Source: Candidatus Aenigmatarchaeota archaeon
GTDB taxonomy: Archaea; Aenigmatarchaeota; Aenigmatarchaeia; QMZP01; QMZT01
DNA length: 64,000 bases
Reading direction: 5' to 3'
Assembly: GCA_016932735.1 (NCBI GenBank)
Contig: JAFGCI010000001.1
Coordinates: forward strand, 132,183 to 196,182
Shown: positions 1 to 58,723 of the stretch, in pieces
How positions within the stretch are numbered: position 1 is the stretch's first letter
Layout of the letters: the number at the start of each line of letters is the position of its first letter
Notes under the pieces: model-generated
Told to the model about the DNA's origin: nothing
The model's input: the letters and a program-made list of their open reading frames with translations, nothing else
Databases searched by the model: none
Position numbers and translations under genes: made by a program

Positions 1-469
1 CATCACCGGCCGGATCGGATACGTACGAAACTTTCTTTGAAACGAAGCTGTAGATTCCGAAAATCTTGGCTGCTACCGAATTAGGGTTCCTGAATTTGGA
101 TACTGAAGCAACTGCAAGATTCCTGACGGACGCGGGATCCATCTTCTCTTTGAAAAGATCAGACGAATATATCGGAATCTTTTTCGCATGCTCGATAAAT
201 ACAGGAGAGAAGGTTATGCTCTTCTCAACATTGGGCGTTATGTTCCAGAAGCATGTCCATCTCTTTGAAAAGCTTACAGGGGAAACGCAGTTGCAGAATC
301 CATCCTTTATGAACCCTGTCTTTCCATCCTCCAGGCAGAGCGTTTTGCATTGCTCTGCCGTATCCGTTGTCGCGAGTATGAGCGAGTCTTCTATGTATTT
401 CAGTTCATACGCAAGCAGTATGAATAGAACAATGATTATTAAAATCAGAAAAATTGTCCGTTTGCGCAT
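1..469 (-). CDS. Hypothetical membrane-anchored protein, partial. The start codon is inside the window and the 3' end runs off the window edge.
   Basis: I reverse-complemented 1..469 by hand. An ATG (complement of 467..469) opens a frame with no stop through position 1. The translation starts MRKRTIFLILIIIVLFILLAYELKY..., which is a clean N-terminal signal-anchor helix. The overlapping plus-strand ORF 66..515 has a Ser-rich, low-complexity, antisense-like translation. Confidence 0.4.
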   Translation of the reverse strand, partial: MRKRTIFLILIIIVLFILLAYELKYIEDSLILATTDTAEQCKTLCLEDGKTGFIKDGFCNCVSPVSFSKRWTCFWNITPNVEKSITFSPVFIEHAKKIPIYSSDLFKEKMDPASVRNLAVASVSKFRNPNSVAAKIFGIYSFVSKKVSYVSDPAGD

Positions 470-713
470 ATATAATCACCGACATAACAATTTAGAAAAT
501 GTCGTTGAAATATAGTGAACGACCGGATTCTAAAAAGTTATGCCATTCACTATAGAATATATTATGCCCGTTTAACTAATAAAAAATCAAATTTCACGGA
601 ATCTGCCCTTTATGTCTTTGATTATTTTCGAAAAAAGCTTTTATTGAATAATTAATAAATATAATCTATGCCAGCCATGCTCATGTCGTGGTTTTAGGCT
701 TTTTGGGTATATT

Positions 714-3700
714 ATGGCGGGGGACAGGTTCTTGTACAGGAAAAATATTCTTCTTTTAACAACGTTAGTCGCTTTTGCTTTGTCGTTCGCCTTCATGGCG
801 CAGGCTTTCGATTTGGAAGGAGCCTATTTCATCACAGCCGAACAGCCGAAGAATTCCGATGGATTGGGATTCTTCAGGATAGGGACTCCGCTCGACGCGG
901 ACGTCAACATAAGCTTCAGCTACCCGATACCGCTCAGCCCTGGAGAGGCGGATCTGACAGCTGTTGTATACAAACCAACGAACATATTCACGAACATGGA
1001 ACTGCCATGTTCTTTGAATTCACAGACTGGGTATTATCCAGTCAATGTCCAGCACAGATACTATGTCCCACAAGATGTGTGGTATCAGTATTATAGAGCT
1101 GGTGGAAGATTCAATTACCAATCGAGTGCATGTATAAATGGATTGGTCCATGTGTTTACAGAACCCTTTGAAATGAACACAATATCCCTCGGCGACATAA
1201 TCAAGGCAGGCGACATCAACGGCAACCAGATTGTCTCCGGCAACCCGCCGACATACGACTTCAAGGAGTATTTCTTCGACTTCACCCTGAACCTCACATA
1301 CGACAACGTAAGCGAGGAGGGAATCGACTTCAAGTACAATTACACGAGGGATATAGAAAAGACAGAAATGAGTAATACGGACGACTTGGAAGTGGCTTTG
1401 CCTACCGGAGACAATAAATATCATTTTGAAGACTATGATAACTATGTCGAGTATAGAAATTTATTAGCACCCCCCAAAATAGTTTATCATGATACCGACG
1501 ACGGGGATTCAAATGAAGTATTTGATTCTGAAATATATGTATACTCAGAAACAGTGAAAGCTGTCACTTTTTATGTTAGAGGTTATAATGATGACTCAAC
1601 TATAGACGACAAAGCCGCAATAAACATATATCAGGCAGGAAATCCTACCGCATTGAGCAGTTCTGGTTGGAAGGAGCACAGTCCTTTCTATCACAGTTTC
1701 ACATTCCTGCCCGGAATCGAATACAGAGTCCAGTTCAGGCTGAAAAATAGAGCCGATCATGATAACGAACATGCACATTTTGAAGTTCAGATATCCAGCC
1801 CTTCCATAACAAACCATAACCAAATATGGAGTGTCATAAATTCGGGAATTTTCAATGTTGATATAAATCAGGAATTCTGGAAGATTACCCAGCGCCAAGG
1901 CATATTTGATGCAAACAATAACCAGCGGCTTGATAATTATTGTTCGGGGCCTCAGGATTTTTATGTAAAGGCCGCTACCGGTATTAAATCTGAAAGTTGT
2001 GACGGAACGGATGTCGTCATAACAGCAACCAATCAGGCCGGAGATTCAGACGATAAAGTGGCTCATATAGCAAATGGAGGATTTTTATTCTTTAAACAGG
2101 ACGATATGAACGATACAAGCTATCATTTCGAAACTGTCGTAAGAACAGGAAAAGCCCTTGAAATAGAATTTGCTGTCATGGTAAATTACGGAGTTTCGGT
2201 TTATGTTGACGGCGACCTTTCCAAGGGATTCAGGATAGGATGTCCTTCCGCTGAAGACTGTGCTAACCAGAACTACTATACACCGTCAGAAAAGCTAAAC
2301 ATACCGGCCGGTTATCACAAGATTGATATCTACCTTTTCTGCAAGGACGGGCAGAAATGTTTCCTTGAGATGAAAGCCATAGAGAAAAATGGAAACGCGC
2401 CGGAGATATTTTTCAAGGATAATTTTGATGAGATAGGAAAACCCGTCGACAGCAATCTTGAAAAAAACCCAATCGAAGCAAATTCCGGACAGGCCGTCAC
2501 ATTCTCAACCGAAGACGGGCTTGTCGATGTTGAAAGGAAAGAGCCTGTTTATTTTGAATCAGGCCTTTACAAGGATCTTGAGCCTGTCAAAGCTGATAAT
2601 GTCGATGAAGCAGATGACAGGATCCAGCTTTCAATGAGGCTTGCATGCGGCGAGCAGATTTACCAGCCGTGCAGGGACTTCGGAAAATGGGGTGCCTGCA
2701 CCACCGATAACAACGGCTGGATAAGGAACAGGATACTCCATGAGAATTACGCCGATTACGAATTGGTGGAAGACGATAACGGGGACTATACAATAGCCAA
2801 ATTCACAATAGAGCCCTTTGACCATCACAGCCTTGATTATACCAACAATGCAAATGCACCGAACCAGCCGGGGCAGCATAACAGGACAGCTTACGGCGGT
2901 GAATACATCGGCGGAATATACGAGTGCAAGATGAACTGGCCGAACTACGAGACTGAATGCCCGGACCCCACCTACCAGTACAGCTTCAGCGGCTTTGAGT
3001 GCTGCTACCAGAAATACACAGAGGCTGACAATAAGCCGACAGGCCCTGTCTGGTGGTCCGGAATATCCAAGGATCCCGATACTGGAGAGCAGGTGGGAAC
3101 AATCCATATAAGGGACTTCAAGGAATCCACCCAGACGTCGGGGGAAGCCGTCATTTACATTGTCAATTATCTTCCATATGGAGGCTACACTTCAAAACTC
3201 GATGCAGAGTACATGAACTTCTCCATGTTCGACGAGCGCCCGAAATTGTGCGCGTATGTAACCAAGAAGGTGTCCCTTCCGCATGAATATCTCATAACTT
3301 TCAACAACACACATACATGCAATAAGGTGTCAGCGACGGGAGACTGCTGCTACTGCGACCCCAACTCGGTCTGCACGCTGAACTGCAAGAACAGGGAAGA
3401 CATAACGGACATGTATTATGCTACCTCCCTGATAACGGCGAACAGCCTGAGGGCGTCGAGCTTCAACCTCCCCTTCACGACAATGGGAAGCGGATGGTAT
3501 CTTGAGAACATAAACGTCTCCGTAATAGTCGACAGCGATACGGGAAGCAACGTGTCCGTTTCCGTGGAAAATACGAGCGCCACGAGATGGAAGACGACAG
3601 CGGAAATGAAAGAAGGCTCGCAGAGGCTCCTTCAGGAAGGAAACTACACCGTTTCCGTCAATCTTCACCACGATTTCGGCTTCAATGTCTCCGACGACAA

Positions 3701-6700
3701 TCCGGGGACATATTACGTAAACTTCACCCTGGATTACATCAATTTCAGCAAGAGGACTTATTCAGACGCCGAATTTGATTTCGGCAGCAATGAGATGGGG
3801 AACAGCTCATGGGAAATATACCTGAACCAGTACAATCAGGACGACTACCCCTCAAGCGTCAGGGACCAGTATGTCTCCTACTCTCCCCTCAAACCGCAGG
3901 AGATTGACGTTAAGAAGATATCGTTCTCGGGAGAGTCGGGAAGCATAGTCGATTACGGGAAGAGGATAAGCTTCAGAGCGCCTCCCAAGAACCAATATGA
4001 ATGTGAGACAGCCGCAGAGTTCGCGGCTTATTGTACAACATGCAGTGGAACATCAACGCGGGGTCACTGGGACGGCACGAAATGTGTATGTAGTTATCCT
4101 TCCGAATCAGAAAAAGGCATTTGTTTTGAAGTTGATGTACAAGCTGGGTGTAATTCTAATTGTTGTGTATGCCCAGAATCATTTAATAATCCGGTGATAT
4201 ATTGGAATCGTAATGTATGCCAATGCACCGAGTCTAGGGCAGATAACAAACCGCCAACAATAACAATATTAAATGAATCTGGAAGCACAATAAATGATAA
4301 CACGGCAACTATTAAAGGCACGGCATACGACTTAGGAGGGCTTGCAGATATTAGAATTTCTATTGAATCTACAGAACAACGACAAATTGCAACTCTTAAT
4401 GACTTGGAAGAAGGCGAATATGAATGGGAAGCGGAGTTATCGTTCTCATATCCGGCTACATATACCGTTTCAGCTACAGCAACCGATTTGGGACGCAATA
4501 CAAATAGTGTTTCAATCACAATAACAGTTTCGGACACCGCCTTCCCTCCGACAATAACAATAAACGCGCCTGAAGAAGGGCATGAATTCTTCACGACAAC
4601 AACCAAAGTGAATCTTGAAATATCAACAAACAGGGACGCTTTATGCAGGTACTCTACCAGCGATTTGGGTTATGATGAGATGGAGCCGACACAAAACTTC
4701 ACAGAGGAGAATCCTACAACAAACTTCAAAGCAGAAGTGCCTGTCTACTCGAACCAGAGATATACATACTATTTTGCATGCACTGACGGAACAAAAAGCC
4801 ACACATCAGCAGACAATTCGCAGGTTTCCTTTGATGTTCTCGGGGTTGGAGGCAGAGAGCCAATCGACTTGGAATGTTCCGAAGAAATTGTTGATGAAAG
4901 CACATGCACTGTGGACAAGTGCAACTGCGGGCCTGACGGCGGGATACCAATCTGGAACGCGCACAGGGGTTGCATCTGCACCAAATGGGACAATGTCTGC
5001 AGGGACGTGACCGACTGCAAAGAAGACAGGAACGGCGGGCCTAACCAATACCGCTACTGCGACACGGAATACAATATGTGCTATGACAATGAATACACTT
5101 CCTCGAACCTTAAGCTTGCCGGAGGCACGGAGCCTCGGAACAACATTAATTTCACGGCTTCCGAATGCACGGTAATAGGCTCCGAGACGAGGTTCATCTA
5201 TGACTGGAAAAGTCATCCCGGAACTTACGACGATTTCGGAGCATGCGCATCCGACGGGACCTGTCCGGACGGCGGCATCTGCGCATTTGTGAATGAAATA
5301 GAAAGCAGGTGCATCCTTCCGAGGGGCGGGTGCTCCCTCGGTTTGCAGGTGTGCGGCCCCGGCTACAGATGGCTTTATGCGGAGAGCGAGGAGGAGCCCG
5401 TGTACAACAAGCCAGAAACCTGCAACCGAATTGACGACGACTGCAACGGCTGGATTGACGATACTGTCAACTTCACCACAATGTTCAAGATATCCCTCGA
5501 GCTTGCCGGAAGCGGAATAGGAAGGAGCCCGCAGGAAATCACGCAGTGCCAGTGCTTCAACGGGCTTCCCCCTGAAGAGGAAGTCTGCGATTCCATAGAC
5601 AACGACTGCGACGGAATCATAGACAACGACGTAAAATACGTCCTCAGGAACAACTGCACAGAAGAGGTCTTGACGATTATTGATATAGGCAACCCTCCCA
5701 CAGGATACAGCCTTTATGATTTTGCCTACAACAAATATTACAGCGATGAGTGCACCATTACAAACGAAACAATACGTGAAACCCAGAACCTGACTGTCAA
5801 CCCCTGCACTGACGAGGTTTATGAATGCATGCAGCTTGGCAAATATCACACAGAAATAATTTATAACAACGACACAGATGAATATGAATTTCCTTATAGA
5901 TTTGAAGATTGCACTACACAATTATGCCTTGATGGCTGTATAGAACATGGATATAGTTCGGTCCCCAACGATACAGCGCAACTTGAATGCGAAACCTATT
6001 TCGGTAGTGCCAGCGAATGCTGCTATAAGATGGGCTATAATACAAATCCGCCTATACCAGACAATGCTCTCCAGAATACATACGAATATTGCGCCGAGAA
6101 ATATTATAATCCTTACACATGCATCCCACTTGAAGAAGAGATGTACTATGTCCCCGGAGAATTATGCAATTGTGAATTCACTGGAACCATGTATGATTCA
6201 GGCGGAATAACACAAGAATATCTGGATTTCATAAAAAAGGTGGATTCAAACAACGAAAGCTATTGCTCATCTTACACACCTTTTAGCACCGAATGTTGTA
6301 ACGGCATAGACGACAACTGCGACGCGCTTCTGGACAACACGGAATATCCGGAATTGTGTGCATGTTACGGCATTGATAATACAACCATCAGAGACGAAAC
6401 GTGGACTATAAATGACATGAATTGTACAGGAAGGGACGAGAACTGTGACGGGACTATAAACGAGAACGCATTATTTTGTAATTGTACGCAAACATTAAAC
6501 CTTCCAAACGCTACGACAATAAAAGAAGCTTTGATTTCTGATGAAAGTTGTAACGGCATAGACGATAACTGCAATAATGAATATGATGAAGATTTCCCTG
6601 TCAACACCTCTTGCGGAGGAACCAATGTAAGCAGGTGTTATGGCGGAGTGTATGTGTGCAACGCTACGGGATATAATGCTGTTTGCAATACAACAGCAGA

Positions 6701-9700
6701 CATATCGGAAATAAATACAGATGAGGGATTTTTTGGTACAGCGACAGGTGCTGATCTTAGAATACCTGAAGTTTGTAGTGGGGAAGATAGTGACTGCAAC
6801 GGGACAGTCGATGACACTGCACATCCGGAGCTTTGCAACTGTTATAATTATGAAAACTTGTGGGAGATTCAGGACATATGGGAAAACAACACAGACGACA
6901 ACTGCAACGGAATAGACGACAACTGCAACATGAGAATAGACGATGAATCCTTCAGTTGCGCATGCACGAACAAGACAGAGTCAGAGGTTGTCCAGATAAA
7001 GACTGTCAACGAGACCTGCGACGGCATCGACAACAACTGCAACGGATTTGCAGACGAGACATATTCCGATATTGGAAAGATGTGCGGATTCGGCGCGTGC
7101 GCAAACGGCGTGATGGTATGCGATGTCTACGGAATGAGGACTGTCTGCAACACGACAGTCGATGCGGCAGACACTTACAGCGGAATCGCGCAGAGCTTCA
7201 TAAGCGACGAAGTGTGCGACCTTGTCGGCGACGAGGACTGCGACGGCTCAATAGACGAGGGATGCGCCTGCACCCCGCAGGGCATAAAGAAAATATGCGG
7301 ATACGCGTCTGAGCTCGTCTACAATAACAGGCAGCACATCGACAGCATTTGCAATGAGATAAGAAGCCAGCTAAGGAACATGGTATCCAAGTCTTCCTCT
7401 CCGGGAGACATGAAATACAGGAGAACAATCAAAATAAAGAACAGCAATAGTTATGTTGTTAAGGACTATCCGGTCAGGGTCGACCTTTCGGTAATAGGCT
7501 CGACAAAGATAAGAAGCGATTTCGGCGACGTCAGGGTTCAGGATGCAAGCGGAAATGAGCTTCCGTGGAGAAGGGACGGCGGTTCAATCGTGTTCAAATC
7601 GAGTCTCCTGAGCGCCGGAAACAACAAATATACATTATATTACGGAAGCCCTGTCAGGACATATTCCGAGAAGTCAATGACGGAAATATACGGGCTTGAA
7701 AGATATCAGGAGACATTCCTGATGTGCGACTTCAATTACAATACACAATGCAATAAGGGAAACATGGTTCCAAGGGCATCTGACGTTTCAGTATTCAGCA
7801 TCGGAAGATATGAAGCGGCCATGCTTTTCAATTCAACAAATCACACTCTGCGATACGCCTCATCCGCAAACATAAACCTCAACAGAGGAACAGTCGAGAT
7901 GTGGATAAAGACATCTTCTTCATCAGGGACTCTGTTCCATCTTCCTGCGGCTGCAGGTTCAATAAAGCTTGAGATAAATGCGGGAGCCGCTTCTCTGGCA
8001 AGAGACTCTTCTGTAATAGCAAGCGGCGGGTCGGTATCAGACGACCAATGGCATCATATAGTCGTTGGATGGGATAATCTCATTGGAATGAGCCTTTATG
8101 TTGATGGGAACAAAGTCGGAGGATCTGTAGTGGCATGGACTCCGAACAACATGGGAACCGATATATTCATAGGTTCCGAGCAGGGCGCTGCAAATTATTA
8201 TGCAGGTCTTATCGATGAGCTCAGAATTTCAAAGACAAAGCTGAGCGACGGCGAGGTAAAGGCAGATGCACGCCTGCTCGGAGGAAGCATCTCACCATCC
8301 CTTGCTAACGAAGAGGACATGGGAAGTGTCGGCGGCGGTTCCGGACAACTGACTGATTCAGAATTATATTATGAATGCCTGGAAAGGCTGGAGAATGCGG
8401 CAGGCGCTCCCGAGAACTCAGACAACGAGAACAGCATCCTTAGCCTGTGCTCATCAATGATAACATGCAACAGCGACTTCAGCATTGATTCTGCAAGCGT
8501 CTGCAGGGTCGGAGTCCAGAGCTGCAGCTCATCGGGATGGAGCGATTGTTCAGGAAACGTCGTCCCGCAGACAGAAGTTTGCAACAGGAGAGACGACGAT
8601 TGCAACGGTTTGACTGATGATTTCCTTTATGCACAGGATACATGTGCATGCTACAACGGGAACCCGCCGAACGGCCCCGAAGAGTGCAACGGTGTGGATG
8701 ACGACTGCAACGCCCAGGTTGATGACGGCTTCGGCGGCAGATGCGCCTGTTCAAGCGGCCAGAGAGCGCAGGGAGATGAGCCGAGGATATGCAATGGAAT
8801 AGACGACAACTGCAACGGGATAATTGATGAGAATGTATCCAACTGCGCCTGCGCGGACGCAACATTCGCTGAAATAAACCAAAGGGTTGGCACTGAGAGA
8901 TGCAACGGCATTGACGACGACTGCGACGGCGAGATAGACGAGGACTTCGCTAATGTGGGAAACACATGCGGGGGAGACCAGAACAGCGCCTGTTATGGCG
9001 GCTACTATATCTGCAAAGCGGACGGAACAGGGACAGTTTGTTCGACCACTACAGACGGAGTCCAGTTGCTGGGCAACCTTACCAGTATTGACCTGAGGAC
9101 AGATGAAACATGCAATGGAATAGATGACGACTGCGATGGTGAGAGAGACGAGAACATTCCTAGGTGTGCATGTGCTGACGGAGCCCAGAATACGGGCGGA
9201 TATGAACCGCAGGTCTGCAACGGAATAGACGACAACTGCAACGGACTTATAGATGAAGGAGTCCTGAAATGCCCGTGCGCAGACAAGACTCTTGAAGACG
9301 TTGAGAGCTTCATAACACCTGATTTGACATGCGATGATATTGATAATGACTGCAACGGGATTGTTGATGACCAGTATCCTCAGCTAGGAGAAGTATGTGG
9401 CGGCAACCCAAGGAGCGCATGTTATGGAGGCAAGTATGTATGCAGTATCGATGAGGTTTCAGTTGTCTGCAATACTATGACTCCGCCTGAAAATTCCTTC
9501 ACCGGAAAGACCATAGACAGAAGAAGTGAAGAGAGCTGCAACGGAATAGATGACGACTGCAATGATGTAATAGACGATCTGGCCGGCAGCAACTCAAACA
9601 GATATTGCGCCTGTTACAACGGAATGCGCCTTCCCGGGGAACTCGTGGAAAGATGCAACGGAATTGACGAGGACTGTGACGGCGTGATAGACAACAACGT

Positions 9701-11168
9701 CCCAATGTGCGGATGCTCAGGCGTGAGCACTATGATAAGCAATTCAAAGCTTGTCCAGACAATCGACGGAAAGAGAGCGTCTTCTGAAATCTGCAATAAC
9801 ATTGACGATAATTGTGACGGCGGCATAGATGACGGCCTCGGAAAGTCATGCTATTGCACCGGCGGATACAACGGAACCGCGCTTGGAAGGCCCGAATTCT
9901 GCAATGCAGTTGATGACAATTGCAACGGGGTTATTGATGATATACCAAAGCCGTATGCATGTGCATGCTATAATGGCGCGCACGGGGCAGGGGAGCTCAC
10001 AGAAATATGCAACGGCATAGACGACGACTGCAACGGAATAGTCGATGAAGAATATCCGGAGAAGGGAGCTTTCTGTGGCGTAGGTATATGCACGGGGGGC
10101 ATGTACGAATGCTCCCAGGACAACCTGACGACAACCTGTTCCGGTAACAGGAGAGCGATTTCAGCCGCCCTCGAACATCCGTCATACTGCAACACATATG
10201 ACGACAACTGCAACATAGCGGTAGATGAAGGATGCGGCACGAACGCATCTGTGACTAACAGAAGCTGCGGCAGCGATATTGGTGAATGTTCTTCCGGCCT
10301 TCAGCTGCTGGTCGGGGGAAAATGGGGCCCATGTATGACAATAGGCCAGAACAGGCTCAAGGGGCCCGAAATAGAGGTTTGCGACAGCCTTGACAATGAC
10401 TGCGACGGTATAATAGACAACATAGGCGGAAAGACATCCACAGAAACAACAAGATGCGGTTGTTACGGAGGTGCCCAGCCTTCGACTGAAGAATGCAACG
10501 GCATCGACGACGACTGCGACGGGACTATTGACAACATCGGCGGAAAGACGTCTGTTGAATCCACTAAATGCGGCTGTTATGATGATGAATACGGAAGAGG
10601 AGCCAGCATTGAAAGATGCAACGGAATAGACGACGACTGCGACGGTATAGTCGATAATGTCAAGGAAGAAGAGTCTGTTGAAGCCACGAAGTGTGGATGC
10701 TACGGAGGACTTGTCCCGACGGCCGAAAGATGCAACGGCATTGATGACAACTGTGATGAGCGCATAGACGAGGATTTCGTTGAACTGGGAAAAGAATGCG
10801 GTATCGGTTACTGTTCAGGCGTATACATATGCAGCCAGGACGGTCTGCAGTCCGTGTGTAACGGCAACACTCCCACAACAGAAATATGCGATTCGATAGA
10901 CAACGACTGCGACGGCAAGATAGATGAGGGCTGTTACGGCAGTGAGCTAACGAGCTGCGAAAACGGAATCAGGGACGGTCGTGAAGAGGGCATAGACTGC
11001 GGCGGTCCATGTCCGGATGAATGCATGGGAACGCACGGACCTTCTGTCGATGACCTCAATACAAAGAAAGAAAACATAAAAAGCACATGGTTCACTATAT
11101 TCCTTGTAATGGTTGTTCTTATTATAGGCATAGGCATCGTCCTGCAATTCGGCCTGAAAACCAAGTAA
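714..11168 (+). CDS. Giant 3,484-aa secreted and anchored surface protein. It has an N-terminal signal peptide, Cys-rich modules, tandem Ig-like domains, a LamG/ConA-like lectin domain, about 27 MopE-like/TSP3-like Cys-Asp repeats of the form CNGIDDDCDGxIDE, and a C-terminal TM anchor.
   Basis: A single uninterrupted 10.4 kb ORF. The N-terminus is MAGDRFLYRKNILLLTTLVAFALSFAFMAQA, a signal-peptide-like segment. The C-terminus is WFTIFLVMVVLIIGIGIVLQFGLKTK, a TM helix followed by a basic tail. Repeats such as CNGIDDDCDGIVDE and CDSIDNDCDGKIDEGC recur about 27 times. A LamG motif region reads GTVEMWIKTSSSSGTLFHL...YAGLIDELRISKTKLSDGE. Ig-like segments read KPPTITILNESGSTINDNTATIKGTAYD...TYTVSATATDLGRNTNSVSITITV. 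Confidence 0.9.
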   Translation: MAGDRFLYRKNILLLTTLVAFALSFAFMAQAFDLEGAYFITAEQPKNSDGLGFFRIGTPLDADVNISFSYPIPLSPGEADLTAVVYKPTNIFTNMELPCSLNSQTGYYPVNVQHRYYVPQDVWYQYYRAGGRFNYQSSACINGLVHVFTEPFEMNTISLGDIIKAGDINGNQIVSGNPPTYDFKEYFFDFTLNLTYDNVSEEGIDFKYNYTRDIEKTEMSNTDDLEVALPTGDNKYHFEDYDNYVEYRNLLAPPKIVYHDTDDGDSNEVFDSEIYVYSETVKAVTFYVRGYNDDSTIDDKAAINIYQAGNPTALSSSGWKEHSPFYHSFTFLPGIEYRVQFRLKNRADHDNEHAHFEVQISSPSITNHNQIWSVINSGIFNVDINQEFWKITQRQGIFDANNNQRLDNYCSGPQDFYVKAATGIKSESCDGTDVVITATNQAGDSDDKVAHIANGGFLFFKQDDMNDTSYHFETVVRTGKALEIEFAVMVNYGVSVYVDGDLSKGFRIGCPSAEDCANQNYYTPSEKLNIPAGYHKIDIYLFCKDGQKCFLEMKAIEKNGNAPEIFFKDNFDEIGKPVDSNLEKNPIEANSGQAVTFSTEDGLVDVERKEPVYFESGLYKDLEPVKADNVDEADDRIQLSMRLACGEQIYQPCRDFGKWGACTTDNNGWIRNRILHENYADYELVEDDNGDYTIAKFTIEPFDHHSLDYTNNANAPNQPGQHNRTAYGGEYIGGIYECKMNWPNYETECPDPTYQYSFSGFECCYQKYTEADNKPTGPVWWSGISKDPDTGEQVGTIHIRDFKESTQTSGEAVIYIVNYLPYGGYTSKLDAEYMNFSMFDERPKLCAYVTKKVSLPHEYLITFNNTHTCNKVSATGDCCYCDPNSVCTLNCKNREDITDMYYATSLITANSLRASSFNLPFTTMGSGWYLENINVSVIVDSDTGSNVSVSVENTSATRWKTTAEMKEGSQRLLQEGNYTVSVNLHHDFGFNVSDDNPGTYYVNFTLDYINFSKRTYSDAEFDFGSNEMGNSSWEIYLNQYNQDDYPSSVRDQYVSYSPLKPQEIDVKKISFSGESGSIVDYGKRISFRAPPKNQYECETAAEFAAYCTTCSGTSTRGHWDGTKCVCSYPSESEKGICFEVDVQAGCNSNCCVCPESFNNPVIYWNRNVCQCTESRADNKPPTITILNESGSTINDNTATIKGTAYDLGGLADIRISIESTEQRQIATLNDLEEGEYEWEAELSFSYPATYTVSATATDLGRNTNSVSITITVSDTAFPPTITINAPEEGHEFFTTTTKVNLEISTNRDALCRYSTSDLGYDEMEPTQNFTEENPTTNFKAEVPVYSNQRYTYYFACTDGTKSHTSADNSQVSFDVLGVGGREPIDLECSEEIVDESTCTVDKCNCGPDGGIPIWNAHRGCICTKWDNVCRDVTDCKEDRNGGPNQYRYCDTEYNMCYDNEYTSSNLKLAGGTEPRNNINFTASECTVIGSETRFIYDWKSHPGTYDDFGACASDGTCPDGGICAFVNEIESRCILPRGGCSLGLQVCGPGYRWLYAESEEEPVYNKPETCNRIDDDCNGWIDDTVNFTTMFKISLELAGSGIGRSPQEITQCQCFNGLPPEEEVCDSIDNDCDGIIDNDVKYVLRNNCTEEVLTIIDIGNPPTGYSLYDFAYNKYYSDECTITNETIRETQNLTVNPCTDEVYECMQLGKYHTEIIYNNDTDEYEFPYRFEDCTTQLCLDGCIEHGYSSVPNDTAQLECETYFGSASECCYKMGYNTNPPIPDNALQNTYEYCAEKYYNPYTCIPLEEEMYYVPGELCNCEFTGTMYDSGGITQEYLDFIKKVDSNNESYCSSYTPFSTECCNGIDDNCDALLDNTEYPELCACYGIDNTTIRDETWTINDMNCTGRDENCDGTINENALFCNCTQTLNLPNATTIKEALISDESCNGIDDNCNNEYDEDFPVNTSCGGTNVSRCYGGVYVCNATGYNAVCNTTADISEINTDEGFFGTATGADLRIPEVCSGEDSDCNGTVDDTAHPELCNCYNYENLWEIQDIWENNTDDNCNGIDDNCNMRIDDESFSCACTNKTESEVVQIKTVNETCDGIDNNCNGFADETYSDIGKMCGFGACANGVMVCDVYGMRTVCNTTVDAADTYSGIAQSFISDEVCDLVGDEDCDGSIDEGCACTPQGIKKICGYASELVYNNRQHIDSICNEIRSQLRNMVSKSSSPGDMKYRRTIKIKNSNSYVVKDYPVRVDLSVIGSTKIRSDFGDVRVQDASGNELPWRRDGGSIVFKSSLLSAGNNKYTLYYGSPVRTYSEKSMTEIYGLERYQETFLMCDFNYNTQCNKGNMVPRASDVSVFSIGRYEAAMLFNSTNHTLRYASSANINLNRGTVEMWIKTSSSSGTLFHLPAAAGSIKLEINAGAASLARDSSVIASGGSVSDDQWHHIVVGWDNLIGMSLYVDGNKVGGSVVAWTPNNMGTDIFIGSEQGAANYYAGLIDELRISKTKLSDGEVKADARLLGGSISPSLANEEDMGSVGGGSGQLTDSELYYECLERLENAAGAPENSDNENSILSLCSSMITCNSDFSIDSASVCRVGVQSCSSSGWSDCSGNVVPQTEVCNRRDDDCNGLTDDFLYAQDTCACYNGNPPNGPEECNGVDDDCNAQVDDGFGGRCACSSGQRAQGDEPRICNGIDDNCNGIIDENVSNCACADATFAEINQRVGTERCNGIDDDCDGEIDEDFANVGNTCGGDQNSACYGGYYICKADGTGTVCSTTTDGVQLLGNLTSIDLRTDETCNGIDDDCDGERDENIPRCACADGAQNTGGYEPQVCNGIDDNCNGLIDEGVLKCPCADKTLEDVESFITPDLTCDDIDNDCNGIVDDQYPQLGEVCGGNPRSACYGGKYVCSIDEVSVVCNTMTPPENSFTGKTIDRRSEESCNGIDDDCNDVIDDLAGSNSNRYCACYNGMRLPGELVERCNGIDEDCDGVIDNNVPMCGCSGVSTMISNSKLVQTIDGKRASSEICNNIDDNCDGGIDDGLGKSCYCTGGYNGTALGRPEFCNAVDDNCNGVIDDIPKPYACACYNGAHGAGELTEICNGIDDDCNGIVDEEYPEKGAFCGVGICTGGMYECSQDNLTTTCSGNRRAISAALEHPSYCNTYDDNCNIAVDEGCGTNASVTNRSCGSDIGECSSGLQLLVGGKWGPCMTIGQNRLKGPEIEVCDSLDNDCDGIIDNIGGKTSTETTRCGCYGGAQPSTEECNGIDDDCDGTIDNIGGKTSVESTKCGCYDDEYGRGASIERCNGIDDDCDGIVDNVKEEESVEATKCGCYGGLVPTAERCNGIDDNCDERIDEDFVELGKECGIGYCSGVYICSQDGLQSVCNGNTPTTEICDSIDNDCDGKIDEGCYGSELTSCENGIRDGREEGIDCGGPCPDECMGTHGPSVDDLNTKKENIKSTWFTIFLVMVVLIIGIGIVLQFGLKTK
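5421..7270 (+). repeat. Block 1 of in-frame tandem Cys/Asp-rich repeats (about 9 copies, C-x-G/R-I-D-D/N-D-C-D/N-G) inside the giant CDS. The repeats are also visible at the DNA level, e.g. tgcaacggaatagacgacaactgcaa.
   Basis: Recurrent translated motifs: CNRIDDDCNG, CDSIDNDCDG, CNGIDDNCDA, CTGRDENCDG, CNGIDDNCNN, CSGEDSDCNG, CNGIDDNCN, CDGIDNNCNG, CDLVGDEDCDG. Confidence 0.8.
8580..10935 (+). repeat. Block 2 of tandem Cys/Asp-rich repeats (about 18 copies). Many copies are near-identical at the nucleotide level, e.g. tgcaacggaatagacgacgactgcgacgg.
   Basis: Motifs from CNRRDDDCNG, CNGVDDDCNA and CNGIDDNCNG through CDSIDNDCDGKIDEGC. The spacing between Cys pairs is regular, and an Asp/Glu-rich loop of the form DxDxDGxIDE resembles Ca-binding loops. 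Confidence 0.8.
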
Positions 11169-11359: not shown

Positions 11360-11551
11360 ATGATTATACCCGTCAGATGCATGACCTGCGGAAAGGTCAT
11401 CGGGCAGGAATGGGAAACCTTCAGGGAAAAGATAAAGAAAGGTGAAAACCCGAAGAAAGCATTGGATGAAGCAGGATTGGAGAGATATTGCTGCAGAGCC
11501 GTGTTTATAGGCCACAAGGACCTTATTCAGGGCATGAATAGATTTATATAA
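11360..11551 (+). CDS. rpoN: DNA-directed RNA polymerase subunit N (RpoN/Rpb10).
   Basis: 63 aa. MIIPVRCMTCGKVIGQEWETF...LERYCCRAVFIGH matches the RpoN/Rpb10 zinc-binding CxxC...CC signature and length. Confidence 0.85.
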   Translation: MIIPVRCMTCGKVIGQEWETFREKIKKGENPKKALDEAGLERYCCRAVFIGHKDLIQGMNRFI

Positions 11552-11576: not shown

Positions 11577-11732
11577 ATGAATATAAAGAAATATCTGAGA
11601 GTTCTTCAGGTCGCAAGAAAACCCAGCAAAGAGGAATTTATGGCTTCTTCCAAGATATGCGTGCTTGGAATAGTTATTATAGGTATCATAGGATTCTTGA
11701 TATTCCTCGCAGGCGTATTAACAGGAATTTGA
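11577..11732 (+). CDS. secE: Protein translocase subunit SecE / Sec61-gamma. At 51 aa it is below the ORF-track length cutoff.
   Basis: Hand translation gives MNIKKYLRVLQVARKPSKEEFMASSKICVLGIVIIGIIGFLIFLAGVLTGI*. This is the archaeal SecE pattern: a K/R-rich N-terminal segment followed by a single TM helix. It sits directly upstream of spt5, which is the conserved gene order. Confidence 0.7.
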   Translation: MNIKKYLRVLQVARKPSKEEFMASSKICVLGIVIIGIIGFLIFLAGVLTGI

Positions 11733-15739: not shown

Positions 15740-18700
15740 TTATTTCTTCTTCACCAGTTTCTTAAGCTTCATAAGAGGCCCGCCACCCTTGTGTACGGCA
15801 TAAACACTTGCCTGTCTCTCATATCCGGGCATGTACGGGCTCTTGAACTGCACGATTGTCTTCTGGCTCCCAAAAGCCTTTTGCCTGCCAATTCCCCGAC
15901 CTGATGATTTTATTTTTGGTATTTTGTCCTTTATGCTATTCAGCATATTCTTCCTTTTCGGACCAATCGCCCTGTAGCCGGACCTCATGCTGTAACTTCC
16001 GTGTTTCGGTGGCAGGAGAAGATACACTAGAATACCACCGACTATGACAACGATTACAATTCCCACTATCCAGAAAGTTGTATCTGTCAAGGCGAGTCCC
16101 AGTATCTGCTGCTTCTCATTCTGTAAATCGGAGAACTGGTTATCTATCTCGCCAAGCAGGGCGTCGACTTCTTTCAGAAGCTCGTTTGCCTCCAGATAAT
16201 ATCCGGCGGCCAGCTTGGTCTTTATGTCTTCCAGCATCCTTCCTATGGTTACAATCGACCTGTTGAGTTTGGTGTAATTATCAGAAGCCACACCCCCCAT
16301 ATTCACCGTGCTGAAGTCTGCCAGGAATTCGTTGAGCATTTTTACATAAGTATCATATGTTGTATTAATCAGGAGTTTTGTCTCTTCGTTTGGCTGTATT
16401 CTTATTGTGATGTTATATTCAACAGATGCAGCCGTCCTGTCCTTGTCGTAAGCAATGAAGGTTATATTCCCAGTCCCTATATCACTTGTCTCTGATATAT
16501 TGACATCAAGCGTTGAACTGTATGTCATGAATGGCTGGAGTATGTGGTAGACACCAGAAGGTATGGGGATATTGACGCCCCTGAGGATTGATGTTGCGTT
16601 TATCTTTACATTCGAGGTGACGTTGCCGATGTTTTTTATCTTGAATTCTATAGTACCGTTTTCGCCCTGTTTTATATCAAGAAATTCTGTTATCTCCATT
16701 ATTTTTAGTGCATAGTTGTATGTATCCAGAACACATTCGTGGTTTACTGCTGAGTATCCAGCAGCGCAAACCAGTTCCAGACACGTCCCGCCTACGCAAT
16801 GATAATTTGAAGAGCAATCGTCGTCCTCATCACATTCATCCGTTGTGGATGTATCGCCTGTCGTTCCCGTATTGTCAGTAGTCGTGCTTGAGCTGCTGTT
16901 GGTGACCGTTATTATTTCGTAATCAAGGTGTGTGGAGTTGTAGAATATCTGCTGGGCTGAAGCGTTTCCATAAGCATAAACCACCGACAGCCTGAAGTCG
17001 CCGAGTGCTGTCGCCTCAGCATCTAAAGCATTGTTTAAATCTGGTCCGCATTCCATGTTCTGCCATGTCGAGGAAGAGTTGGGCAATGTATTATTATAAT
17101 AGCAATAAAGATTTACAGTGGTCTCGACTTTATAGCTGGAACTGTTTGACTGGATAAATGCTGTCACATTTGATATGTCTTCCGTCCCGTCATTGAGAAC
17201 CTGCACATATATTGTGTCGGTATTTCCTGAAGGGTATGAAAGCGATGTATCGACCCCGTAAAAGGCGACCTGAAGCTGGGGAGCGATTATATTATAGACG
17301 TTAGTGTCATTCGCCCATCCTGAATAGTTGCCGCATCCGTATGTGGCTGAAATTTCTATCTTAGTCGAATGATTTCCGGATTCTGCGACCCTCCTCTCTG
17401 TTATAGCATAGTCTTTAAATTCAAAATTGTTTAGCGGTACTGTATAATTAATAATATATAAGCCGTTGCCACCCCCGCCAAAGTATGTGACATTCGCAGT
17501 CCTGTTCCAGTCGTCCCTTCCTGAATATGAATCGTATATTACAGTAATATTTGAAGTATCAAGGCCGGTAATGGCCGTCCCATTGGAAAGCTTAACGGAT
17601 ATGTTCAATGTTACTGTGTCTTCGGGGAGGACGGCTGAGCCGTATGTTATTACATCAATAAGAGTGACATTGAGGTCTGTGGAGATATATTCCACCCTTG
17701 TATTGTTTGAGCTGACCCCCAAAACCTCATCTCTTTCCATTGTCCAGTTGTCCCCATAGTCGGCGGTGGCATTTATGGATGTATTGCAGTTCCTGGCTAT
17801 CAGCCCTGTATAGTTTATATAAGCCTCTTCTCCAGGATTAAGAGACGCAATTGTGACAGAGGAATTTGTCGTCGTATAGTAAGAGAAACTGACATTAGTA
17901 ACGTTCGTAACCGGTGCCGTTCCTATATTTTTGACGATTACGGTTGCATTGAATTCCTGCCCTCCGTAAGGAGATCCGGGAGTTATTGTTATATCGTATA
18001 TGATAAGGTCTGACCTGTTCCCGACATACAGCGTCCTGTTAGACGATGCGAATGCTGTGTTATTTTCAGAGTCGTAGCACTGCACATTCCATATGTATGT
18101 TCCGTTATGGTTCGTGCTGTTGTTCATGCCGTCAACAGAGAATGTCGTAAGCGTGTTGTTTTCCATGGTGGAATTCGTCTGGTTTATATCCCATGCGCCA
18201 CCTGAAGAGTTCGTAAGCCAAAGGCTACAGTTTGCGAATCCGGAGAAGTCGGTAGCCGTGAAATTGAATGTTACTGCATTCCCGTCATCGTCCCACCAGC
18301 TATCCGAAGTGTTGAGGACTACGGAAGGCGCCGTATTGTCAATTACGATTGACTGGTTCTCCGCTGTCGAATTGCCGTTTCCTGCAAGGTCAATCATTGT
18401 TATGTTTATGTTATACCTGCCATCCGCGGGTACTGTCGAAAGCGATATGTTCTGGGTAGTCGTATTTGTTCCGGCTGTTATGTTAGATGTATTGGATGCA
18501 GAATAAACAGAATAGCCCGTTGCGTTCGTTATGTTGATTATGAATGAAGCGGGATTTGCTTCTGTATAGCTGAAATTCATTGTGAAGTTTATAGTTGAAT
18601 TTATAGTCTTAAGATAGGCCGGCGTCGAGTTCGTCGGCGAGTTAACCAAAAGCTGTGCGGGCGTGTTATCAATTACAAGCGATCCGTTCTCCCTTGTCGA

Positions 18701-19780
18701 GTTTGAATTTCCCGCCCTGTCATAAAGCGTTATCTCTATATCATAGTTCCCGTCGGCAAGAAGTCCGGGATAGTCCATTGATACGTTCTGAGCCTTTGAT
18801 AAAGATGAGCCTCCTGTTATAATGCTTGAATTTGTCACATTGTGAACACAGTCCCCCGTGCTGTTGGTTATGTTTATCCAGTACAAAGCCGGATATAGCT
18901 CCGTATAGGTGAAATCAATTGTGAAATTGATGTAATTGCTTACGTTCTTCTGATAGGTCGGTGTTGCGTTGAGCGGTGAAACCATCGCCAGAGACGGCGT
19001 TGTATTATCGATTGTGACCACCCTCGTTTCAGAGAACTCATCTGCAGTTCCGTCGTCGTCTGAATCGCATCCGATGAACCACGAATAAAGCGTGTTGGAA
19101 AGCGTGGAATTTGCTGTTATGTTTGTATTCGTTGCATTGCCCGCTGTCGTGTTTCCATATGGGGTTGTTACTGAGTCTACGAACAATGTGCAGTTGATCG
19201 TTGTGTTGTATTCCGACAGGAATGTGAAATTGAACTGCGGCTGAGTGTCATTGATGTAGCTCATGCTGGCAGGGTATGTAAGGTTTATGGAATCTATATA
19301 CGGGTCGAATGATATGTTCACCCAGTCAGTTCCATTAAACATCAATAGGGTAAAGTTCCATTTGCCGTAAAGCGGCTCTGTCATGTTTATTTCGACCATG
19401 AAGGGATATACGATATCATTTACAAATGGCAGGTTTTCTATGATGTTCGTGGTTATCTCCGTGCAAGGTATCTGGCTGCAGTTGTATATGGTGAAATTGA
19501 CATCAGTTGTTCCGAAGGTCGCGCTGTTGTTAAATGTTATATTGTATACCCCATTAAGCGTGGCATTATTGCTTGTCATATTGATATATGCAGTGCATCC
19601 CGGATAGCATGAGTACGAAGACTTATCCGAAACGAAAGTCACATTCCAGGGCATTGCCGTATAAGTAAAACCTACCGCAACGCTTGCCAAACCAAAAACC
19701 AAAAAACAAACAAAAACCAAAGTCGATATTGAAAAGTATCTCGAATTAACTATCCTATTCCCCACCATTATCCCACTCAT
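15740..19780 (-). CDS. Large 1,346-aa cell-surface glycoprotein, a candidate S-layer or envelope protein. It has an N-terminal signal or TM segment, a very high density of N-x-S/T sequons, a predicted secondary-structure-rich Cys pair, and a C-terminal TM anchor with a basic tail.
   Basis: N-terminus ...YFSISTLVFVCFLVFGLASVAVGFTY. There are more than 100 N-x-S/T sequons, e.g. NMTSNNATLNGVYNITFNNSATF. The C-terminus is LTDTTFWIVGIVIVVIVGGILVYLLLPPKHGSYSMRSGYRAIGPKRK. Confidence 0.8.
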   Translation of the reverse strand: MSGIMVGNRIVNSRYFSISTLVFVCFLVFGLASVAVGFTYTAMPWNVTFVSDKSSYSCYPGCTAYINMTSNNATLNGVYNITFNNSATFGTTDVNFTIYNCSQIPCTEITTNIIENLPFVNDIVYPFMVEINMTEPLYGKWNFTLLMFNGTDWVNISFDPYIDSINLTYPASMSYINDTQPQFNFTFLSEYNTTINCTLFVDSVTTPYGNTTAGNATNTNITANSTLSNTLYSWFIGCDSDDDGTADEFSETRVVTIDNTTPSLAMVSPLNATPTYQKNVSNYINFTIDFTYTELYPALYWINITNSTGDCVHNVTNSSIITGGSSLSKAQNVSMDYPGLLADGNYDIEITLYDRAGNSNSTRENGSLVIDNTPAQLLVNSPTNSTPAYLKTINSTINFTMNFSYTEANPASFIINITNATGYSVYSASNTSNITAGTNTTTQNISLSTVPADGRYNINITMIDLAGNGNSTAENQSIVIDNTAPSVVLNTSDSWWDDDGNAVTFNFTATDFSGFANCSLWLTNSSGGAWDINQTNSTMENNTLTTFSVDGMNNSTNHNGTYIWNVQCYDSENNTAFASSNRTLYVGNRSDLIIYDITITPGSPYGGQEFNATVIVKNIGTAPVTNVTNVSFSYYTTTNSSVTIASLNPGEEAYINYTGLIARNCNTSINATADYGDNWTMERDEVLGVSSNNTRVEYISTDLNVTLIDVITYGSAVLPEDTVTLNISVKLSNGTAITGLDTSNITVIYDSYSGRDDWNRTANVTYFGGGGNGLYIINYTVPLNNFEFKDYAITERRVAESGNHSTKIEISATYGCGNYSGWANDTNVYNIIAPQLQVAFYGVDTSLSYPSGNTDTIYVQVLNDGTEDISNVTAFIQSNSSSYKVETTVNLYCYYNNTLPNSSSTWQNMECGPDLNNALDAEATALGDFRLSVVYAYGNASAQQIFYNSTHLDYEIITVTNSSSSTTTDNTGTTGDTSTTDECDEDDDCSSNYHCVGGTCLELVCAAGYSAVNHECVLDTYNYALKIMEITEFLDIKQGENGTIEFKIKNIGNVTSNVKINATSILRGVNIPIPSGVYHILQPFMTYSSTLDVNISETSDIGTGNITFIAYDKDRTAASVEYNITIRIQPNEETKLLINTTYDTYVKMLNEFLADFSTVNMGGVASDNYTKLNRSIVTIGRMLEDIKTKLAAGYYLEANELLKEVDALLGEIDNQFSDLQNEKQQILGLALTDTTFWIVGIVIVVIVGGILVYLLLPPKHGSYSMRSGYRAIGPKRKNMLNSIKDKIPKIKSSGRGIGRQKAFGSQKTIVQFKSPYMPGYERQASVYAVHKGGGPLMKLKKLVKKK

Positions 19781-58722: not shown

Positions 58723-58723
58723 T

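Follow-up and report, generated by a model that had tools for sequence, protein, structure and literature searches.

On the forward strand of the window (the whole 64,000-nucleotide (nt) stretch of contig JAFGCI010000001.1, from a Candidatus Aenigmatarchaeota archaeon) lies a real giant gene whose product is a predicted surface protein of a tiny DPANN archaeon (Aenigmarchaeota), built mostly from known parts. We favor, with moderate confidence, the reading that this product is a fibrillar, adhesin-like protein that is stiffened by Ca2+ and presents lectin-fold domains at the cell surface. The protein would be exported by a Sec-type signal peptide and tethered by a single C-terminal transmembrane helix, and the N-terminus would therefore be the distal tip. 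Outward from the membrane, the predicted order is the transmembrane helix, a small CGG module, 18 repeats, the LamG and DUF2341 modules, 7 repeats, a Cys-rich segment, 2 repeats, Ig-like domains and the head. Most of the length would thus be a stalk of 27 small modules with loops that bind Ca2+ and are pinned by disulfides, stiff and extended when Ca2+ is present. Lectin-fold modules would be carried on this stalk, with at least one PA14-like beta-sandwich in the head at the tip and a DUF2341-LamG pair at mid-stalk. Such a protein would probably serve in adhesion, with a carbohydrate or a protein of another cell or surface as its ligand, and the DPANN lifestyle suggests that host interaction or attachment may be involved.

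Anchor and repeat stalk of a narrowly distributed protein family

The gene was found to be one open reading frame (ORF) covering 16% of the window, in agreement with an earlier note on this DNA that had described a single giant frame of 3,484 amino acids (aa) taking up one-sixth of it. The encoded protein has 566 Asp plus Glu versus 233 Lys plus Arg residues, and an identical NCBI protein, encoded on a 209-kb contig, is named 'LamG domain-containing protein [Candidatus Aenigmarchaeota archaeon]'. The features of the frame, its termini and its stalk are listed below, with the evidence for each; HMM denotes a hidden Markov model.

714..11168, + strand: complete ORF, 3,484 aa; single uninterrupted frame; 202 Cys; strongly acidic
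714..806, + strand: signal-peptide-like N-terminus, aa 1-31; hydropathy, layout common to relatives
5412..5636, + strand: MopE-type repeats 1-2, aa 1567-1641; unit HMM
5637..6284, + strand: conserved non-MopE Cys-rich segment, aa 1642-1857; family alignment
6285..7265, + strand: repeat block 1, units 3-9, aa 1858-2184; unit HMM
nt ~6411-6890, + strand: window-specific three-unit insertion in block 1, units at aa 1904, 1946 and 2021; alignment with relatives
8571..10937, + strand: repeat block 2, units 10-27, aa 2620-3408; unit HMM
nt ~9099-9524, + strand: window-specific three-unit insertion in block 2, units at aa 2800, 2835 and 2873; alignment with relatives
10956..11024, + strand: membrane-proximal Cys module CENGIxDGxEEGIDCGGxCxxxC, aa 3415-3437; conserved at the same position in all relatives
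11088..11156, + strand: single C-terminal transmembrane helix, aa 3459-3481, then a KTK tail; hydropathy, kept in relatives

Hydropathy analysis revealed exactly two hydrophobic segments in the protein, at aa 10-32 and aa 3453-3484. The signal-like N-terminus has a basic n-region and a hydrophobic core, then AQA followed by F (sequence MAGDRFLYRKNILLLTTLVAFALSFAFMAQA and then F). Based on hydropathy and on conservation in the relatives, these assignments agree with the signal peptide and single C-terminal transmembrane segment with a short basic tail that had been proposed in the earlier note; they support an extracellular, C-terminally anchored topology, and export of the protein is predicted. 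No PGF-CTERM or other sorting signal was detected at the C-terminus by NCBIfam (E<=0.1), which gave no match on the whole protein, and the 23-aa membrane-proximal Cys module matched no Pfam model (other than MopE in that segment) and no NCBIfam model.

Relatives of the giant protein were sought with phmmer, using aa 1-1175 as the query in an exhaustive search of 1.84 billion cluster representatives, and only five were returned. The closest of these, P0002 (the same as locus L009), is a 59%-identical fragment on a 5.3-kb contig, and its length is not comparable because the C-terminus '...HLSLIHISEPTRPY' looks like the translation of a sequencing adapter at the end of the contig. P0003, P0004 and P0005 are 2,462-2,526 aa in length with about 32% identity, and P0006 is a 194-aa fragment. 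Further loci came from scans for two head motifs in GTDB genomes and JGI metagenomes; two of the added loci are labelled Candidatus Aenigmatarchaeota, and the others are labelled 'uncultured archaeon' or carry no label. Among the data searched, the family is rare and confined to metagenome-assembled genomes of Aenigmarchaeota or of unclassified archaea. The family is unnamed, undescribed and narrowly distributed, and its stalk module and conserved 21-unit array are unusual. A whole-protein similarity search returned the giant protein alone and a search with the head alignment returned nothing though relatives exist; both outcomes were read as a limit of the word index or E-value scale of the searches and not as an absence of relatives.

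The stalk was delimited with an HMM derived from its own units, which recovered 27 MopE-type repeats (9 before LamG and 18 after, all at an independent E-value <0.01). Counting by regular expression gave 26-28 repeats; across 1,000 shuffled sequences the mean count was 1.0 and the highest 5. Pfam Cu-binding_MopE (PF11617) matched the protein at E 1.2e-60 (201.7 bits versus a cut-off of 27), with 15 stretches found by hmmscan. The earlier count of about 27 MopE-like Cys-Asp repeats was thereby borne out. The repeats at aa 1570 and 1625 stand apart from block 1, with the 216-aa non-MopE Cys-rich segment between. About 20 of the units are short (35-46 aa, four Cys) and about 7 are long (52-72 aa, six Cys), the latter with an extra F-x3-G-x2-C-G-x-G-x-C-x-G-G-x-Y-x-C-x6-8-C. 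The even number of Cys per unit, either 4 or 6, suggests that disulfides may form.

All 12 full-length relatives (2,456-2,527 aa) were found to be collinear with the window protein and to carry 20-21 repeats each by the repeat HMM. These full-length members share MopE repeats and Laminin_G_3, with DUF2341 in most, as well as a signal-like N-terminus, a C-terminal transmembrane segment and the CENGIxDGxEEGIDCGGxC module. In the family alignment, 21 of the 27 window units each had a one-to-one counterpart in six full-length relatives. The other six make up two clean insertions of three units each (aa ~1900-2059 and ~2796-2937) that are probably duplications; the insertion in block 2 has 71% DNA identity to neighboring repeats (family D7). 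Identity to the six full-length relatives was 16-37% in the head, 30-36% in LamG and 47-54% in the main repeat blocks. Judged by these alignments, the window copy is an enlarged version of a ~2,470-aa, 21-repeat family, with two three-repeat insertions and a ~540-aa insert.

Such a gene could in principle be an assembly artefact, either a chimera or a mis-joined collapsed repeat array, as the source is a metagenome-assembled genome, the gene is highly repetitive at the protein level, and GC content is 0.51 within it (window 8001-10000, repeat block 2) versus ~0.42 in the rest of the window. The repeat DNA copies are just 60-84% identical, which argues against a collapsed-repeat chimera; they are also irregularly spaced, and only one 51-nt tandem array was found by Tandem Repeats Finder. 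The whole protein is, moreover, collinear with 12 independently assembled relatives, and its extra repeats are clean insertions of three units each. An artefact is thus unlikely, to the point that we give it next to no weight. The rise in GC content probably reflects the codons of the Asp/Gly/Cys/Asn-rich repeats and is not read as foreign origin because the giant gene is vertically conserved.

Column composition and profile comparison of 26 aligned units of the giant protein revealed the consensus E(-2)-x-C(0)-N-G-I-D(+4)-D-[DN]-C(+7)-[ND]-G(+9)-x-[IV]-D(+12)-[EDN]. We take this loop to be of the DxDxDG type with Cys at loop position 4. Asp was found at loop position 1, Asp or Asn at position 3, and Asn or Asp at position 5 in 26/26 units each; Gly occupied position 6 in 19/26, Ile, Val or Leu position 8 in 22/26, and Asp position 9 in 25/26. 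When the 26 units were compared by hhalign to eight teneurin-type C-rich cores, a match of 13 columns was obtained (probability 80%, P 1.3e-5), with D-x-[DN]-C-[ND]-G-x-I-D as the matched core. Under this alignment the Ten4 ligands D840, D843, N844, D845, D847 and D851 fall on unit positions +1, +4, +5, +6, +8 and +12, each of which is Asp or Asn in at least 25/26 units (Glu or Ser in three units at +5). The Pfam MopE motif was aligned with the teneurin C-rich core by Tucker et al. (PMC3278476), and a crystal structure of the teneurin C-rich domain was solved by Meijer et al. with three Ca2+ ions, two of them thrombospondin type-3-like and one LDLR-A-like, and with E835, D840, D843, N844, D845, D847, D851, D854 and D856 as ligands (PMC9058538). 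From this sequence correspondence, Ca2+ binding like that of the teneurin C-rich domain and of thrombospondin type-3 repeats is the most likely role of the repeat loop. The resemblance to Ca-binding thrombospondin type-3 or EF-hand loops noted earlier therefore stands in the loop consensus and the teneurin core match, and fails in that the Pfam TSP_3 model is unmatched.

The same repeats bear on whether the protein is instead a surface protein that binds or scavenges copper or another transition metal, for which the PF11617 match could be cited together with the 202 Cys and many Asp residues as possible ligands. In MopE and its homologue CorA, copper is held by two His residues with a kynurenine nearby, and the Ca2+ site is a separate one (PMC3423442, PMC3912023). 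In the 26 aligned units, no column held a conserved His or Trp. Binding of copper as in MopE/CorA was thus not supported, because the MopE/CorA copper ligands have no conserved counterpart in the units; the Pfam model itself, which spans only a small part of MopE, 'lacks specificity' (PMC6189053). The residues that are conserved in the units (Asp, Asn and Glu) are hard oxygen ligands, typical of Ca2+. A copper-binding role is unlikely on these grounds, and we regard transition-metal binding or scavenging as very improbable.

Head and mid-stalk modules with known or putative lectin folds

The features of the head, of the insert that follows it and of the mid-stalk pair are as follows.

807..1433, + strand: conserved N-terminal domain 1, aa 32-240; 26-31% identity to relatives, no Pfam match
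1527..1793, + strand: possible first PA14-like module, aa 272-360; motif only, 'SVDDGVRIYLDG' of relative P0004 versus 'YNDDSTIDD..INIYQAG' of the window in the alignment
1878..2393, + strand: PA14-like beta-sandwich, aa 389-560; suggested by an AlphaFold (AF2) model, Foldseek and a profile against PDB
2394..3773, + strand: conserved region peculiar to the family, with invariant Cys and several motifs, aa 561-1020; family alignment
3774..5393, + strand: lineage-specific insertion of Cys-rich stretches and Ig-like domains, aa ~1021-1560; missing from the ~2,470-aa relatives
4254..4505, + strand: Ig-like domain Big_7 (PF17957), aa 1181-1264; E 1.7e-6, 29 bits versus a cut-off of 24.1
4545..4838, + strand: probable second Ig-like domain, aa 1278-1375; weak PKD match (E 0.003, below cut-off) and sequence reading
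7416..7652, + strand: DUF2341-like module, aa 2235-2313; reads YRRTIKIKN...YTLYYGSP, aligned relatives match PF10102
7860..8261, + strand: LamG/ConA-like jelly-roll Laminin_G_3 (PF13385), aa 2383-2516; E 6.5e-20, 72.2 bits versus 27.6

The first ~1,150 aa of the protein had been described in the earlier note as Cys-rich modules. This proved wrong: only ~23 of the 202 Cys lie in residues 1-1100 (about 2% of the residues there), and the region is instead a beta-rich, family-specific head. For aa 32-1020 there was no Pfam, NCBIfam or PDB sequence match, and nothing significant was found in PDB when it was searched by sequence with the first 1,562 aa or the last 884 aa of the protein, or with profiles of the head and of the repeats. 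An AlphaFold model of aa 380-1020 built from five family rows had a mean predicted local distance difference test (pLDDT) score of 44.5, with aa 389-560 alone usable (pLDDT 70-81) and the remainder mostly <50.

When the model of aa 389-560 was compared to PDB by Foldseek, the PA14 lectin domains Epa6A and Epa1A (Candida) and Cea1A were ranked first; the best of these PA14 matches reached E ~3e-4 and probability 0.99, yet their TM-score relative to the target was only 0.25-0.47. Lower matches included Flo1 and the PA14 domain of the Marinomonas adhesin MpIBP, and then CBM35 and CBM6 modules; matches to inserts of GH31 enzymes and to the yeast beta-glucosidase insert were also present, and these inserts we take to be PA14. 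The top PDB sequence match of the aa 389-560 profile was the tandem PA14 (dyad) of C. thermocellum RsgI3, at E 0.03, in which the hallmark 'S-Y-x-F-x-T...V-N-D-G-x-S-I-Y-L-D-G' is paired with 'S-V-R-W-T-G...T-D-D-G-V-R-L-W-V-D-G'. These lines of evidence, three in number and each of them weak, are independent of one another and together suggest a PA14-like fold for aa 389-560.

Downstream of this domain, aa 561-1020 carry the motifs IEPFDHHSLD, IGGIYxC, YI[IV]NYLPY, PKxCA and CCYC. A conserved region of 460 aa with invariant motifs might be the catalytic part (aa 560-1020) of a secreted or surface enzyme or toxin, for which the remainder of the protein would serve as a delivery scaffold. A catalytic role for the His-His pair of IEPFDHHSLD was considered and rejected, the pair being replaced by DNSS in P0004 and by EHGS in P0005. 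There is also no Pfam, NCBIfam or PDB sequence match to point to an enzyme, and structural residues (Cys, Gly and aromatics) predominate among those that are invariant. An enzyme or toxin is thus unlikely, and we consider it quite improbable.

The ~540-aa insert between the head and the first repeats was represented by 61-69 aligned columns of 540 in the family alignment. The fragment P0002 has an insertion at the same position that is partly different in sequence and includes one stretch that looks Ig-like by eye. Of the two Ig-like domains that had been placed at about 4246..4620, the first was recovered as Big_7 (4254-4505); the second, a probable domain with a weak PKD match, was misplaced in extent, as it runs to about 4838 and not to 4620.

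At mid-stalk, the LamG/ConA-like domain predicted earlier at about 7830..8260 was recovered as Laminin_G_3 (nt 7860-8261), and Laminin_G_2 was also above its cut-off (27.9 versus 22.9 bits). A DUF2341-like module that had been overlooked in the earlier note precedes it. Pfam DUF2341 (PF10102) did not match the window copy even at E<=1; in the aligned segment of relatives it scored above the cut-off of 23.4, with 28.6 bits (2e-6) for P0004, 27.3 (5e-6) for locus L007 and 24.6 (3.5e-5) for L006, and identity between the window copy and those relatives is 25-34% in this segment. A search with the DUF2341-LamG segment returned weak 37-41-bit matches to small LamG proteins, three of which have an archaeal pilin N-terminal domain. 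Lectin-type folds, as had been claimed, are thus represented by LamG (from Pfam) and by the putative PA14-like domain (from the model and profile), and glycan binding by the giant protein is a hypothesis drawn from them.

Gene order and weighing of the readings

In 12 related loci (L001, L005-L008, L012-L015 and L017-L019), the giant gene is directly preceded, in the same orientation, by genes for glutamate dehydrogenase and thioredoxin (for example, at 8379-9954 in L001 and 6724-8351 in L006). SHMT and ThyX are often found farther upstream, and the thioredoxin has a WCGPC motif and no signal peptide. This context was absent from the 713 nt 5' of the window gene, from L002, and from the loci of the closest relatives, L003 and L009. 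A functional link to the thioredoxin was considered and set aside, and the arrangement is treated as synteny only, given that the thioredoxin has no signal peptide, belongs to a larger block (SHMT, ThyX and glutamate dehydrogenase) and is absent upstream in the window. Several loci showed further features at or near the giant gene. A second large gene with 12-14 MopE-type units lies just 3' of it in L008 (17891-20585), L014 (16287-21014) and L018 (17095-20604); that of L008 also has a Metallophos domain, and the window has no equivalent. On the 1.1-Mb contig of L008 (10001-17402), three ORFs (194, 302 and 1,837 aa) stand in place of one intact family member, which reflects either long-read frameshift errors or a pseudogene. 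In L006, an Aenigmatarchaeota locus, a 638-aa Hint/intein-type protein is encoded 3' of the giant gene (16382-18298).

The main rival to an adhesin is a core structural component of the envelope, for example an S-layer-associated spacer or 'ruler' for the width of a pseudo-periplasm or of a cell-cell gap, the lectin folds of which would bind the organism's own glycans or the S-layer. Repeat number is fixed at 20-21 in the 12 full-length relatives, at only 16-37% head identity to the window protein, the repeats are positionally orthologous, the block of glutamate dehydrogenase, thioredoxin and giant gene is kept in 12 loci, and there is one copy at each locus. The fixed array and conserved gene order are explained by a conserved core component of the envelope no less well than by an adhesin that is host-specific and evolves fast. 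By contrast, an anchor, a long stalk and a distal lectin-like head make up the architecture of an adhesin (PMC8286594), and no sign of lattice-forming capacity was found. In the window lineage, moreover, the gene has moved and the stalk has changed by a third in length, so that length is not strictly constrained, and an Ig-like/CARDB protein encoded at 15740-19780 is an equally good candidate for the S-layer. We give the envelope reading a limited but appreciable likelihood.

Several observations weigh against a Ca2+-stiffened adhesin. Adhesin repeat arrays usually vary in number, and a fixed repeat number together with conserved gene order is unusual for proteins of this kind. The habitats of Aenigmarchaeota are mostly anoxic, and extracellular disulfides are not a given there. 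Pfam TSP_3 gave no match at E<=0.1 on the whole protein, and an AlphaFold model of a short and long repeat pair from six paralogous rows was unusable (mean pLDDT 43). For the head, AlphaFold performed poorly over most of its length, and Pfam PA14 was unmatched at E<=1 in the window segments and at E<=5 in five family members. The Asp-Asp pair of the Flo5/Epa PA14 structures, which we take to be the site that coordinates Ca2+ and sugar, varies across the family: the position is N-Y in the giant protein and D-D in L006, L007, L014 and L018 only. A Ca2+/sugar mechanism of the Flo/Epa type is therefore not supported for the window protein. With these points taken into account, the fibrillar, adhesin-like surface protein is still the reading that we prefer.

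The neighbors of the giant gene in the window were identified as archaeal housekeeping genes (Spt5/NusG, ribosomal protein L11, PAC2, HisRS, eRF1 and EF-2). Two small ORFs between the giant gene and Spt5 (11360-11551 and 11577-11732) were read by eye as RNA polymerase subunit N/Rpb10 (RpoN) and SecE, which would give the usual archaeal secE-spt5-L11 cluster. On the 5' side, a promoter-like AT-rich stretch is present about 50-70 nt from the start codon, and a 149-aa ORF with a TTG start at 66-515 looks low-complexity and has no Pfam match; the whole region 5' of the giant gene (window 1-713) may be non-coding. Another large protein of surface type (1,346 aa) is encoded on the - strand at 15740-19780 and has CARDB and Big_13 Ig-like matches; no similarity to the giant protein was found on comparison, and this neighbor is a possible S-layer or envelope candidate. 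At 57148-59956, a GCS2-like gene adjoins a gene for a circularly permuted ATP-grasp (glutathionylspermidine-synthase-like) protein, and the two are a possible ligase pair for small peptides or thiols. No matches were obtained when the window was scanned for Rfam families and tRNAs.

Significance and comparison with known systems

Little is known, except in a few cultured systems, of how DPANN archaea attach to other cells, and the giant-protein family would be a rare concrete candidate for an attachment molecule of Aenigmarchaeota, for which none is known to have been described. As a conserved family of narrow distribution, with apparently one copy at each locus, it should be expressible, localizable and usable as a marker. 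Positional orthology of 21 repeats at 16-37% head identity is a counter-example to variable adhesin arrays. The teneurin core match possibly ties the widespread, structurally uncharacterized prokaryotic PF11617 motif to a solved eukaryotic Ca2+ site. A genomic survey of Aenigmarchaeota mentions S-layer, archaellum and pilus genes only, and the giant-protein family is not among them (PMC8407114). Large LamG surface proteins are a familiar DPANN theme (PMC5498576), and nothing in the giant protein is mechanistically unprecedented.

A more far-reaching proposal, to which we assign a low probability, is that the family is the principal phylum-specific attachment fiber, a fixed tether of 21 modules, switched by Ca2+, with a PA14-like head and LamG that grip a partner cell. 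The stalk unit would then be a prokaryotic relative of the teneurin C-rich/thrombospondin type-3 core and a new small Ca2+/disulfide fold. If this were true, the window lineage, with 27 modules and Ig-like domains, would be a natural experiment in tether length.

Fibrillar-adhesin-like proteins were defined by Monzon et al. as extracellular proteins with an anchor, a repeat stalk and an adhesive region distal to the anchor (PMC8286594). The giant protein resembles them in its long chain, its anchor at one end, its stalk of small modules (27 repeats) and its predicted lectin-fold domains toward the far end. It differs from fibrillar adhesins in that it is archaeal with a plain C-terminal transmembrane helix as anchor, in that a Cys/Asp mini-module of 35-70 aa, and not an Ig-like domain, serves as the stalk unit, and in that repeat number is fixed across the family rather than variable. 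In the ice-binding adhesin MpIBP of Marinomonas primoryensis (PDB 6x8a, 5j6y), an extender is rigidified by Ca2+ and a PA14 domain binds sugar. By analogy, this Ca2+-rigidified adhesin would be the closest known functional counterpart of the giant protein. By contrast to the PA14 domains of the Marinomonas and Flo type, PA14 is undetected by Pfam in the giant protein, which also does not have the Asp-Asp pair of the putative Ca/sugar position.

The Cys-braced acidic D-x-D-x-D-G-x-x-D loop is common to the giant protein, the teneurin C-rich domain and the thrombospondin type-3 repeats, the last of which were reportedly described by Kvansakul et al. in 2004. In thrombospondin, such acidic, Cys-braced repeats adjoin a ConA-like lectin-fold domain, as they do in the giant protein. 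Compared to teneurin, the giant protein has a Cys inside the loop where teneurin has Gly or Asn, its units are missing the C-terminal CC-x-C part, and there are 27 tandem copies as opposed to one. Of the full teneurin motif, ExxCx(D/N)xxDx(D/E)xDxxxDCxxx(D/E)CC with Cys paired 1-3, 2-5 and 4-6 (PMC3278476, PMC9058538), only the 13-column acidic core aligns with the units.

The short PF11617 motif is shared with MopE/CorA of methanotrophs, which are also surface-associated or secreted and have structural Ca2+ (PMC3912023). MopE/CorA differ in being beta-sandwich copper proteins of ~200-500 aa, of which the motif takes up just a small part (PMC6189053), and their copper site (His, His and kynurenine) is without counterpart in the giant protein. 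The LamG surface proteins of other DPANN archaea (for example, Mia14 'ARMAN', PMC5498576) share the DPANN lineage, the LamG jelly-roll and a proposed role in cell contact. Beyond the LamG fold no sequence relation to the Mia14-type proteins was detectable, and the head, the stalk of 21 or 27 repeats and the overall layout are specific to the giant-protein family.

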